40,469 nt of DNA from a virus (taxonomy: Duplodnaviria; Caudoviricetes): IMG/VR virus record IMGVR_UViG_3300049924_000013, positions 1 through 40,469 of that record, one strand, 5' to 3'. Below, one piece after another: positions 544 to 40,469 of the stretch. A program made the translations under genes and the position numbers. Under the pieces are notes generated by a model, which worked only from the letters and a program-made list of their open reading frames with translations, did not search any database and was not told where the DNA came from. How positions within the stretch are numbered: position 1 is the first letter of the stretch; every line of letters starts with the position of its first letter.

Positions 544-572
544 TTGACATTGGTTTTGTATTTTGGTATAAT
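544..572 (+). promoter_or_regulatory. Consensus sigma70 promoter for the packaging/structural arm
   Basis: TTGACA (544-549), 17 bp spacer, TATAAT (567-572), with an extended -10 TG. Confidence 0.9.
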
Positions 573-22134: not shown

Positions 22135-22184
22135 GACAACTAAAAAGCCTACACAGTTTAGTCGCTGTGTAGGCTTTGTTGTTT
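22135..22184. terminator. Bidirectional rho-independent terminator between the two arms
   Basis: AAAGCCTACACAG-TTTAGTCG-CTGTGTAGGCTTT with an A-tract on the left and T-rich tail on the right, between convergent genes. Confidence 0.9.
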
Positions 22185-29895: not shown

Positions 29896-31562
29896 TGTGT
29901 TTCCCTCCAGTTCCTTCCTACTTTGTACTCCCCATCCAAGGGGCACTTCATTTTAAAAGCCTCACCAGCGGCCTTTATAGCCTCCACAGCAGCTTTTCCT
30001 ACTAGGTCTGCATGGCGGGTAGCCACTTCCATCTGGAACTCGTCATGGACGTTAGCTACAAAGAGAGCGTCCCACTTGTTCTTCCTGATTTCAGCGTCCA
30101 GAATAACCAAGGCTTTCTTCATAATGATGGCTCCAGCACCCTGCAGCAATGTATTCAGTGCGGCGTGTTCACTGCGAACCCATAGTTGCCTTTTATCTAT
30201 CGCAGAAACTTTACCAGTTTTAGCATTATGTGCAACCTTCTCCATAAGCCGCTTAAGAGAGGGAGTCTGCTTAAGAAACTTGGTTTTAAGGGCTTTACCC
30301 TCACCAGCTCCTCCACCAACAATGCTACCAATCTTAGAATCTCCTGCTCCGTAAAGGAATGCGTAGATAAATGTTTTCGCATTGTCTCTAGTAGGTAGAC
30401 CCGCTGCCTTTTGGTTGACAGTATGAATGTCGGTTCCGTCTTTACTGGAGCCACTGATGACTGTTTTAACATATCCTTCATCTTCCATATAGTGAGCTAA
30501 CATACGCAGTTCCAGACCACTGGCATCTGCACCAACCAACACCTTACCTTCAGGGACGGTGAAGCACTGACGGCACTCAGGACCATACTCAGATCCTGCA
30601 TTGGGTATCTGAGCCATGTTAGGCTTACTATGCGTCATTCGCCCCGTCACTGCACCTAAAGTGTTCACACGGCCTCGGATACGCCCATCAGCCTCCACAG
30701 CCTCCAGCCACTGTTCAACCTGACTAACCCGCTTTGTCAGCATCAGGTAACGCAGCACAGCCTTGGCTTCAGGGATGTCACAATCCGACAAAGTCTCCTC
30801 GTCTACCGCGGGGTTACCTCCTGGAGTTTGCTTAGTAGGCTTCCAGCCAGCTTCAATCAACTTCTCAGCCACTTGTTGCCTGCTACCAACATTGAAGCGG
30901 ATAACCTCTTCCTTTAGCGGCTTTCCGGTGGTCTTATGGAACCGCTGAATACGCTGCTCAGGCCATCGGAGCTGCATAGCCTCATCAACCTCTGCAACCT
31001 CACCATTCAGCTTACTGAGTAGGGTATTTGCATACGCTACATCCAGCATAAATCCGTTAGTCTCCTGCTTCTTGATGATGGCTGCAACGTCCATCTCAAG
31101 CTGGACACACTCGTCGCTAAAGCCGTGCGTAGCCTTTTCAGCCATCAGCATATCGTAGACCTTGTGCAGGGCTTCAATGTCCTGTACGCAATAGTCAATC
31201 AAGCTCTGGAGATCAGACTCAACCAGATCATAGTCGGTGAAGTCAATCTTGAAACTCCCTGCGCTCTTGCTTAACTCGGCTAGACTGTGCCCATTCTCTC
31301 TGTTTGGATTTAATAGGCGACTCAAGACGAGAGTATCGTAGGCTTGCTTCCGTACTATCCTCGTATTCCATAGCTTGTTCAATAGAGGAGCATCGAATCC
31401 AATTAGATTGTGACCGATTATTGTAGATGCCTCCTTTAGATACTCCGACAGGCCGCTTGCTTCTTTCCATACCTTCACCTCGTTTGTTTCAATGTTCTTT
31501 GTCACACAGCACCAGATGGTTTTGTGATCCATTGTTGTTTCAATGTCAAGTAGTAGTTTCAT
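29892..31562 (-). CDS. DNA polymerase family A (T7-like) with 3'-5' exonuclease
   Basis: LDIET, GHN.IGFD, DASGLELR (motif A), AKTFIYAFLYG (motif B, Tyr at the 762-equivalent position), NVHDEFQ (motif C). Confidence 0.97.
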   Translation of the reverse strand: MKLLLDIETTMDHKTIWCCVTKNIETNEVKVWKEASGLSEYLKEASTIIGHNLIGFDAPLLNKLWNTRIVRKQAYDTLVLSRLLNPNRENGHSLAELSKSAGSFKIDFTDYDLVESDLQSLIDYCVQDIEALHKVYDMLMAEKATHGFSDECVQLEMDVAAIIKKQETNGFMLDVAYANTLLSKLNGEVAEVDEAMQLRWPEQRIQRFHKTTGKPLKEEVIRFNVGSRQQVAEKLIEAGWKPTKQTPGGNPAVDEETLSDCDIPEAKAVLRYLMLTKRVSQVEQWLEAVEADGRIRGRVNTLGAVTGRMTHSKPNMAQIPNAGSEYGPECRQCFTVPEGKVLVGADASGLELRMLAHYMEDEGYVKTVISGSSKDGTDIHTVNQKAAGLPTRDNAKTFIYAFLYGAGDSKIGSIVGGGAGEGKALKTKFLKQTPSLKRLMEKVAHNAKTGKVSAIDKRQLWVRSEHAALNTLLQGAGAIIMKKALVILDAEIRKNKWDALFVANVHDEFQMEVATRHADLVGKAAVEAIKAAGEAFKMKCPLDGEYKVGRNWRETH

Positions 31563-32068
31563 ACCATCATTCCATTATCTTTTAGTGTCTTCCACCTAGT
31601 AGCCATCATAAAAAATTCCTCAAAAGATGAATTACTTTTCATGCTGTTTGCTTTCATCGAAATAACCCATACATTTCCTTTTATATATCCTTTAGAAGAA
31701 TCTATACGATCTAAGCTAGGGGAGTTATATTTTACAACCTTTTGACCATCGGCCACTTTTAATTCTACTCCCAGAAGAGGGCAATATTTTGGTATTTTTA
31801 TATCCTCTCTCTCGATATTGAACTCCATCCCTGCTGTTTTGGCTCGATGCCTTGCTGCTCCTAGCATTCGTACTTCAGTGCTTCTACGATAATAGGCTTT
31901 ATCCTTAACCCTCAGCAACTCTCTGTTTTCATTCCGATATTTTTCAACTGTTTCCAAAACCTTCTCGGTGTTATCTTTGTAATACTGATTAGCCTTGGCT
32001 TTAACCTTCTCCTTATGTTTCTCGTAATAGGCTGTGTTGTACTGTTTAGTTTGCTCTTTAGTTCTCAT
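31559..32068 (-). CDS. HNH-type homing endonuclease
   Basis: CPLLG...PSLDRID...GY..GNV.VIS..AN.MK; AT-rich; free-standing between helicase and polymerase; GGAGG RBS. Confidence 0.85.
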   Translation of the reverse strand: MRTKEQTKQYNTAYYEKHKEKVKAKANQYYKDNTEKVLETVEKYRNENRELLRVKDKAYYRRSTEVRMLGAARHRAKTAGMEFNIEREDIKIPKYCPLLGVELKVADGQKVVKYNSPSLDRIDSSKGYIKGNVWVISMKANSMKSNSSFEEFFMMATRWKTLKDNGMMV

Positions 32069-32087
32069 AAGTTCCTCCAAAAGCATA

Positions 32088-39359: not shown

Positions 39360-39491
39360 TTATTCTGCTTTAGCTTGCAATTGTTGTGCCAACTTTGCGG
39401 CCAGTGCAAGCCATTGAGAATAGCCCATAGGCTTTGCTTTGATCTTGATCATCCGGGCGCAATAGATAAAGTATTGGTTGGATTGTGACAT
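39360..39491 (-). CDS. Early small protein (43 aa, not in ORF track)
   Basis: MSQSNQYFIYCARMIK...LAQQLQAKAE; GAAAG RBS. Confidence 0.5.
   Translation of the reverse strand: MSQSNQYFIYCARMIKIKAKPMGYSQWLALAAKLAQQLQAKAE
39376..39391 (-). promoter_or_regulatory. Sigma54 promoter P3
   Basis: Minus strand TGGCAC-AACAA-TTGCA. Confidence 0.7.
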
Positions 39492-39529
39492 GGTTTTTCT
39501 TTCGTTAGTGCTGGAAATTAAATTCTATC

Positions 39530-39877
39530 TCAAATTGAGTACATTTTACGACCATATCCGACGATAGTGGCTGCGCTGTCTAATGGCTTTTCTGTTTCAG
39601 CCACTACAAAGCAGTCATAGCGGTATGGATCATATGTAATGCGAGTGCCTGCAGTCTCGACACAGTCCAATGCTACTAGAGTGCCCACAATGCCTGCGTG
39701 CACATTCTTTTGTTTCTCACGCAGAACACGTTGCCGTCCCGCTTCGCTAACCTTGAAGGTGCAATTTGCAAGGGTGATCTTATCGCTATGGAAAATCACC
39801 TTACCCTTGTTCTCACCTTCCATAGCCTTTACAGACCACTTCTTGAGCTTGAGATTCATGTAGACAAAAACTTTCAT
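39530..39877 (-). CDS. Conserved phage early protein of unknown function
   Basis: VY.NL....WS.K...F.VSEAGRQRVLREK.KNVHA...Y.PY pattern familiar from many phages. Confidence 0.75.
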   Translation of the reverse strand: MKVFVYMNLKLKKWSVKAMEGENKGKVIFHSDKITLANCTFKVSEAGRQRVLREKQKNVHAGIVGTLVALDCVETAGTRITYDPYRYDCFVVAETEKPLDSAATIVGYGRKMYSI

Positions 39878-39902
39878 ATAGGCTTTCGTAGGTTGGTGTT
39901 AA

Positions 39903-40100
39903 TTACAGAGCAATGATCGTGCCATTGATTGATTTGAATAGTGACTGTGTGTTTGTCTGTTTGATTATCTGATCAATCTCTGCCTGTGTCTTAGCGTTAC
40001 CTGAACGATAGATGCAGGCCACAGTAGCTGCAAAGTATGATGGATAGCAGCCTACAAGGGCCACTGCTTTGTTGATTTGTTTCTGGTCGGCTTTGTTCAT
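39903..40100 (-). CDS. First early gene, hypothetical
   Basis: GAAAG RBS, about 32 nt downstream of the predicted P1 start site. Confidence 0.65.
   Translation of the reverse strand: MNKADQKQINKAVALVGCYPSYFAATVACIYRSGNAKTQAEIDQIIKQTNTQSLFKSINGTIIAL
39909..39924 (-). promoter_or_regulatory. Sigma54 promoter P2
   Basis: Minus strand TGGCAC-GATCA-TTGCT. Confidence 0.72.
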
Positions 40101-40142
40101 GATAGCGCTTTCTAAGGGTTAGGGTTAGGACTGCTTAGACTA

Positions 40143-40158
40143 TGCAATTGCCGTGCCA
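40143..40158 (-). promoter_or_regulatory. Sigma54 promoter P1 heading the early arm
   Basis: Minus strand TGGCAC-GGCAA-TTGCA; intergenic, 42 bp upstream of the first early ATG. Confidence 0.82.
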
Positions 40159-40206
40159 CGTCCAAATGCAGGGTTTTATAGGGTGTTTTGGTAGATATTG
40201 GCGAAT

Positions 40207-40266
40207 AGTGACATTTTTGTCCAGACAATATTGTCACTTCACTGACTAACCTGTCACTTAGTGACA
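40207..40266. promoter_or_regulatory. Cluster of GACA/TGTC dyads (candidate upstream activating sequence)
   Basis: GACA-TTTT-TGTC (40210-40221), GACA-ATAT-TGTC (40224-40235), TGTCACT-T-AGTGACA (40252-40266). Confidence 0.55.
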
Positions 40267-40300
40267 ATGCCTGCAGCATAGCCCTACACACTGCATAGCC

Positions 40301-40360
40301 TGCACCACTATGGTGCACAGCACAGGCCTGCACTGTTATGGTGCGCACCAGGTTGGTGCA
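40301..40360. promoter_or_regulatory. Three NtrC-type enhancer boxes
   Basis: TGCACCACTATGGTGCA (40301-40317), TGCACTGTTATGGTGCG (40329-40345), CGCACCAGGTTGGTGCA (40344-40360). Confidence 0.7.
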
Positions 40361-40469
40361 TAGGTAGACTGCACAGTCTAGGCTGTGACTATACCGTTCA
40401 GTCACCGACTGCACAGGCTATACAGTGACTGCACAGTCTAGTATAGGGGGGGGTGGTAGAGGCTGTGCT
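40328..40469. repeat. Terminal direct repeat / circular overlap, right copy
   Basis: Matches 1-143 with one fewer G in the homopolymer. Confidence 0.95.

Follow-up and report, generated by a model that had tools for sequence, protein, structure and literature searches.

The window analysed here, that is, the entire stretch of DNA under study, spans one virus record from end to end (40,469 bases), with its genes arranged in two converging arms. The plus-strand arm (684-22129) carries the structural and lysis genes. The minus-strand arm (40100-22328) carries small unknown genes together with genes for a DNA methyltransferase, a primase/helicase, a family A DNA polymerase, an exonuclease, ThyX, MazG and a ribonucleotide reductase. 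A terminator-like, bidirectional hairpin (22144-22177) lies at the meeting point of both arms. Positions 40328-40469 overlap positions 1-142 with a single difference, which is one extra base in a G run; this 142-nt overlap would be either a terminal repeat or an overlap from circular assembly. Around it (40290-40469 and 1-250), where the G run is also located, five CTGCACAG repeats are found as against 0.3 expected. In 17 of 85 relative contigs a contig end falls 800-1300 nt upstream of terL, and the region of the terminal overlap may be a physical genome end or an assembly break.

Among the 64 ORFs scanned, no RNA polymerase, sigma factor, integrase or repressor was identified, which suggests that the phage is probably a lytic podophage relying on the host polymerase. 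Four sequencing runs contain at least 90% of the sampled words; all are metagenomes from freshwater or freshwater sediment, and one of them is possibly the source of the record. Contigs from runs X2 and X3 align to the stretch with zero substitutions, and the sequence is therefore not an assembly artefact. No close cultured phage was found: a methyltransferase gene, in seven phage records, was the sole match to the early region, and the best TerL and polymerase matches among cultured phages are about 27% and 46% identical, respectively. A DUF7227 query found no viral locus. A search for the host, in which the right 20 kb was compared with 401 Comamonadaceae-type genomes, returned two methyltransferase matches only and no spacer.

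The head of the minus-strand arm contains three sigma-54 -24/-12 motifs, P1 to P3, defined as exact matches to TGGCAC-N5-TTGCW with GG and GC ten bases apart. P1 (40143-40158, minus strand) has a predicted transcription start at 40132 and heads the first ORF of the arm (40100-39903, 65 aa), for which a near-length homolog search returned only itself. P2 (39909-39924, minus strand; predicted start 39898) lies in the last codons of this ORF and heads an ORF of 115 aa (39877-39530) matching Pfam PF25735 (L5 gp82-like), a family of unknown function. P3 (39376-39391, minus strand; predicted start 39365) lies in the last codons of an ORF of 43 aa (39491-39360) and heads an ORF of 62 aa without family match (39334-39146). 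The motifs are in sense orientation 42, 31 and 41 nt before the ATGs at 40100, 39877 and 39334, and each of the three leaders has a GAAAG element, which we take to be a ribosome-site element typical of the Comamonadaceae-type family.

An earlier note on this DNA had reported three exact motifs on the coding strand, each 31-42 nt ahead of a start codon, and a pattern search found them at these positions and nowhere else in the genome, with no match in the backwards-read control. Its estimate of about 0.1 chance matches per genome is close to the mean of 0.09 (maximum 1) obtained from 400 first-order Markov resamples, and its predicted starts agree with the -12 positions. When one mismatch was allowed, 7 matches were counted against 2.5 expected, a number reached in 1 of 100 shuffles. 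By a scoring matrix trained on 49 host pilA and glnA sigma-54 sites, P1-P3 have the top three scores of the genome (18.4, 16.7 and 14.1; the next is 12.8), the training sites having a minimum of 12.0 and a median of 21.4. The further claim, that the early arm is headed by three tandem promoters, holds for the location at the arm head and for the sense strand; P2 and P3 lie inside gene ends, so that not all three are ahead of the first gene. The statement that no activator is encoded was also upheld, as GAFTGA is absent from all six frames and PF00158, the sigma-54 activator domain, has no match in the genome. As a sequence pattern P1-P3 are a real feature, a variant of a known promoter type. 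Their function is graded separately: they are very probably functional sigma-54 promoters.

The region upstream of P1, on which the earlier note is silent, is crowded with palindromes of two types. The nearest are of the type found in pilin promoters, GACA-N4-TGTC, and are likely PilR sites. Two are exact, at 40210-40221 (51 nt upstream of P1, centre -83.5) and 40224-40235 (65 nt, centre -97.5), and a third with one mismatch is at 40244-40255 (85 nt, centre about -118); an extra half-site lies at 40266-40261. All three centres fall in the interval of about 80-150 nt before the start in which activator palindromes of sigma-54 promoters are expected. Two exact palindromes within a given 200 nt of this genome are expected by chance with a probability of about 1e-4. 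Farther upstream are three boxes of the NtrC type, scored against the consensus TGCACC-N5-GGTGCA. The first (40301-40317, 142 nt upstream of P1) has no mismatch and is the only perfect one in the genome. The second (40329-40345, 170 nt, two mismatches) and the third (40344-40360, 185 nt, one mismatch) lie inside the terminal overlap and are also present at 2-18 and 17-33. These NtrC-type boxes are embedded in DNA rich in the CTGCACAG repeats, which supply half-sites. No strict IHF site was found between the boxes and P1. P2 has no activator-type palindrome within 230 nt upstream, and the region upstream of P3 has one weak match with one mismatch and no box set of its own. Judged by these host-type enhancer boxes, P1 is likely to be a target of PilR and possibly also of NtrC.

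Host promoters were sampled for comparison in the Comamonadaceae-type family, which was picked from a motif match (L225) and from the presumed GAAAG habit; the comparison is thus not motif-independent, and the host of the phage may differ. The sample consisted of the best 30 pilin loci from 61 genomes and the best 30 glnA loci from 41 genomes, of which 26 and 23, respectively, were kept after loci without a sigma-54 motif had been dropped. Exact GACA-N4/5-TGTC palindromes occur within 200 nt upstream of 13 of the 26 pilin sites (mean of 0.12 and maximum of 2 in shuffles) and of none of the 23 glnA sites. Without the discovery locus the pilin count is 12 of 25. Conversely, NtrC-type boxes are found at 19 of the 23 glnA promoters and at none of the 26 pilin promoters. 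The short N4 spacing, which is also that of the phage, is seen in 11 of 15 exact host palindromes.

A genome-wide search of 301 genomes for a palindrome 40-70 nt from a motif yielded 25 matches, spread over 24 of the genomes, while the control yielded 6. A pilin gene follows 7 of the 25, at gaps of 52-54 or 64 nt (51 and 65 nt in the phage), and 18 do not precede pilin; these gaps come from the 40-70 nt search pattern, whereas the unbiased pilin set spans 52-148 nt. In other phyla, similar palindromes stand ahead of genes other than pilin, so that a different activator might read them. Tandem palindromes were also scanned for across bacterial genomes: among the 119 loci obtained, of an estimated 3,900, 6 have a sigma-54 motif within 250 nt, and 2 of these 6 loci head a type IV pilin, one of them in a Ramlibacter MAG. 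L079, a locus from a tandem-palindrome scan, was rejected as a chance match, probably in coding sequence.

In the one family genome checked in full (G008), six PF00158 matches include only two high-scoring activators. The first passes the NtrC cut-off; the homologs of the second are named PilR, and it adjoins a kinase with a PilS-like membrane domain. The pilin promoter of this genome has two exact palindromes. A plasmid search for named PilR gave no match. In Pseudomonas aeruginosa, the SELEX motif listed for PilR, GTGAC-N7-GTCAC, is the N5 form of the same half-site, and the N4 boxes of the phage are one base shorter (PMC8041468, supplementary file 9). The same table gives for P. aeruginosa NtrC a motif other than TGCACC-N5-GGTGCA, and a different PilR consensus is quoted in PMC8035640. 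No DNA homology between the P1 region and a host promoter was detected in the 401 genomes, and P1 may therefore be convergent rather than captured.

Relatives of the phage were collected by TerL searches, which returned 17, 80 and 14 loci; the 54 loci whose upstream sequence reaches about 2 kb or more were scored. In the interval 0.6-2.7 kb upstream of terL (107 kb in total), 29 motifs are on the outward strand and 8 on the other strand, and the background is 8 motifs in downstream DNA (twice 258 kb) and 6 in DNA farther upstream (twice 159 kb). A matrix scan of the genome and its relatives had been proposed in the earlier note. Its result is favourable in the genome, where P1-P3 rank highest, and mixed among the relatives: the motif occupies the same arm head in 20 of 54, some of them redundant (L005/L007; L014/L447/L448), and its number varies, whereas 34 of 54 lack it in the stretch examined. 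The TerL tree used for ordering them is a quick version, and the label 'none' means only that no motif is present 0.6-2.7 kb upstream of terL. In L005 and L007 the motif is weak and its status doubtful. Among unrelated viral contigs, a palindrome 40-70 nt from an exact motif was found in 49 records (36 clusters), as compared to 19 records (9 clusters) for a control pattern whose spacing was off by one base.

The nearest relative, L001, whose TerL is 88% identical, carries two exact motifs and, 121-155 nt upstream, three exact palindromes; the NtrC-type box is absent from it. Its second motif corresponds to P3, with changes in the spacer only and in the same small gene. This relative lacks P2 as well as the two genes between P1 and the P3-bearing gene, the latter (39491-39360 in the window) being its first gene after P1. 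Variation is also found among strains. The X6 strain contig keeps 40300-40469, and 452 other letters replace 39380-40299; the NtrC-type boxes are retained (three of four listed changes lie in a spacer and one goes toward the consensus) and the pilin-type block is replaced. A minor contig of X2 has a similar replacement. NtrC-type boxes without a pilin-type palindrome lie 94-129 nt upstream in L112, L120, L136 and L453. Other repeated palindromes precede the motif elsewhere, namely TGTC-N8-GACA in L014, L118 and L445 and CGGCAA-N4-TTGCC in L145, both read by eye. In the quick tree the TerL proteins of L118, L120 and L445 are nearly identical. The triplet is not fixed: the number of motifs and the boxes upstream vary even between near-identical phages.

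Several side observations were made on other loci. The TGTC-N8-GACA palindrome is also present in L313 and resembles the DdaR SELEX motif; no host gene could be assigned to this box, since 3 of 201 genomes matched against 1 control match. L175, L176, L177, L183 and L185 have tight arrays in which two or three sigma-54 motifs follow one another, mostly at 26-54 nt, with no recognised enhancer. In L536, L541, L543 and L544, repeated NtrC-type boxes accompany head-to-head sigma-54 motifs, and the first clear gene is about 280-510 nt away. An inverted sigma-54-like motif stands beside enhancer boxes or a forward motif in L001 (473-488), L044, L098, L122, L136, L165 and L175; it might function for the opposite arm or else as a blocking site. 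Clusters of DnaA-type boxes, searched as TTATCCACA, number 53 in 107 kb of inter-arm DNA as against 4 in 450 kb elsewhere and occur in 19 of 54 loci. Examples are L010, L014, L114, L120, L122, L127, L163, L453 and the end of the X6 contig at 40300; no DnaA-type box was found in the inter-arm region of the window. These clusters might mark an origin, form a DnaA-gated promoter or serve for titration.

Sigma-70 promoters are also present in the genome. A perfect (12/12) sigma-70 promoter with a TG extension heads the structural arm (544-572, plus strand). Many relatives have a promoter of this kind as well, about 570-700 nt ahead of terL; such a promoter is unusual for genes that should be late. 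On the minus strand above 22000, no sigma-70 sequence reaches 5/6 in both hexamers. The replication arm contains two TG-extended TATAAT sites (36010-35983 and 24776-24749), which could drive parts of it via sigma-70. A sigma-70 match on the strand of the arm is seen in some relatives without the motif (6 of the 35 loci scanned). Given these sites in the replication arm and on the structural arm, the infection may not depend fully on RpoN.

The usual view is that phage early genes are transcribed from constitutive sigma-70 promoters or by a phage polymerase. In the T7 genome, the A1-A3 promoters are read with sigma-70, need no activator and all lie ahead of the first gene. The earlier note had drawn an analogy with this triplet. 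The likeness consists in three promoters for the host polymerase that lie near one genome end, within about 1.1 kb of it, and the analogy is not supported otherwise: P2 and P3 are inside gene ends, the count varies from 0 to 3 in relatives (two motifs in L001 and one, a tight array or none detected in others), and no phage RNA polymerase was detected. A published precedent is the Pseudomonas phage YuA, which has no RNA polymerase of its own and has been reported to depend on host sigma-54 (bioRxiv 10.1101/2023.10.13.562163; PMC5053324). Its record NC_010116.1 annotates three -24/-12 promoters, all in the structural region, and exact canonical sigma-54 motifs, N4 palindromes and NtrC-type boxes are all absent from the YuA genome. 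In the window phage, by contrast, canonical motifs accompanied by host-type enhancers stand at the head of the replication arm, and a perfect sigma-70 promoter heads the structural arm. In the literature searched, where few subscription journals are covered, no publication on activator-gated phage early promoters was found, and YuA was the one precedent for phage promoters read by sigma-54. The mentions of sigma-54 in PMC3391216 and PMC7693777 concern phage-encoded regulator-like genes, not promoters.

Among cellular systems, a PilR-type activator is reported to drive pilin genes with RpoN in Azoarcus, for which a pilR mutant of strain BH72 has been described (PMC3262810), and PilR-type control of pilin with RpoN is proposed as a model in Ralstonia (PMC4371752). 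P1 resembles the pilA promoters of PilS-PilR (PehS-PehR)/RpoN systems in that its sigma-54 motif is preceded, at similar gaps, by two or three GACA-N4/5-TGTC palindromes; unlike them, it is located on a phage, heads small unknown and replication genes, and adds NtrC-type boxes and two downstream relay motifs. It shares with the NtrC/RpoN glnA promoters the TGCACC-N5-GGTGCA boxes upstream of the motif, but these lie 142-185 nt from P1 (host range 25-173 nt), behind the pilin-type boxes, and are absent in L001.

The sigma-54 holoenzyme binds the -24/-12 elements, and the opening of DNA requires an AAA+ activator bound upstream. At P1-P3 the holoenzyme would stay closed until a host activator bound upstream opens it. 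As the phage has no activator gene of its own, it would borrow one from the host, PilR and perhaps NtrC. P1 would be opened by PilR, the host regulator of type IV pili, bound to the palindromes; the borrowing of PilR at P1 is a rather likely part of this proposal, and a second input from NtrC a tentative one. P2 and P3 would act as relay promoters, brought in on gene cassettes and activated either over 0.3-0.9 kb from the P1 enhancer or from solution. Taken as a whole, it is reasonably probable that P1-P3 are host sigma-54 promoters of the early/replication arm, P1 being opened by PilR on its palindromes with NtrC as a possible second input. A piliated host would have to have active PilR and RpoN, and so, if the pilus is the receptor, which is a guess, the activator would be ready in every cell that the phage can enter.

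Other readings of the same features deserve consideration. The sigma-54 promoters may be real and P1 opened mainly by another host activator, either NtrC alone or a Fis-type protein reading the same half-site. The presence of a perfect NtrC-type box speaks for this reading, which also accords with the four relatives that carry NtrC-type boxes without pilin-type palindromes, with the X6 contig, where the former are kept and the latter replaced, and with the occurrence of GACA-N4-TGTC ahead of non-pilin genes in other phyla. It is nevertheless unlikely, because the pilin-type boxes are the nearest to P1, at the gaps of host pilin promoters, and are the sole boxes kept in L001. A phage protein that escaped recognition, injected or made early, might instead activate or bypass sigma-54, with the host boxes being secondary. 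The lack of nearby boxes at P2 and P3, the many ORFs without family match and the several relatives having a motif without recognisable boxes are in keeping with such a protein. The genome has no GAFTGA and no PF00158 match, however, and host-type boxes at host-like distances would be needless if the phage supplied its own activator, so that this possibility appears highly improbable.

Quite improbable, and somewhat less so than a phage activator, is a role of the boxes as decoys or docking sites near the genome end, where replicating DNA would titrate the sigma-54 holoenzyme, PilR and NtrC (for example, to stop pilin synthesis and prevent superinfection) and the arm would be read by sigma-70 or a phage factor. 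Such a role would suit the repeated arrays of sigma-54 motifs and NtrC-type boxes that are not closely followed by a gene (L536, L541, L543 and L544), the motifs merely 26-54 nt apart in distant relatives, the inverted motif beside boxes in many relatives and the crowding of DnaA-type boxes into the same region in 19 of 54. Against it, each motif of the window is sense-oriented 31-42 nt before an ATG with a ribosome site in the leader, P3 persists within coding sequence with spacer changes only, and no strong sigma-70 promoter is found at the arm head. That the motifs are chance matches or non-functional relics is hardly credible: two of the three do lie within coding sequence, but the chance expectation is 0.09, the motif is enriched by strand and position in relatives, and matching enhancer boxes stand upstream of P1.

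The preferred reading, in which host PilR opens P1, can be extended to the family in a speculative manner, and the extension is doubtful as a whole. This podophage family would keep a sigma-54 promoter at the head of the early arm and swap the cassette that senses the state of the host (PilR boxes for piliation, NtrC boxes for nitrogen limitation, boxes of another activator, or DnaA boxes), the window phage being a PilR and NtrC dual-input form. A lytic phage would in this way time the start of its programme by host signalling, and gating by PilR would tie expression to receptor display. If true, an enhancer-gated sigma-54 early arm makes the start of infection hinge on host signalling, and pilR, ntrC or rpoN mutants could resist via transcription as well as adsorption. 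Enhancer gating may also help to explain the lack of cultured members among such freshwater phages. The P1 module covers 0.3 kb and is testable as a reporter apart from the phage, and the natural cassette variants of near-identical phages provide a ready comparison set.

Three minor observations concern other sequences. The three annotated promoter fragments of YuA (NC_010116.1; L545, L546) contain no canonical sigma-54 motif, and that precedent may merit a re-check. Extra ORFs, absent from the window and HNH-type by eye, flank terS in L001 and L002 (L001:952-1417, upstream of terL, and within terS-terL). An endonuclease-like ORF of the replication arm (31559-32086, minus strand) has weaker PHROG matches to an anti-sigma factor family (E 4.5e-9), which probably reflect a shared domain.
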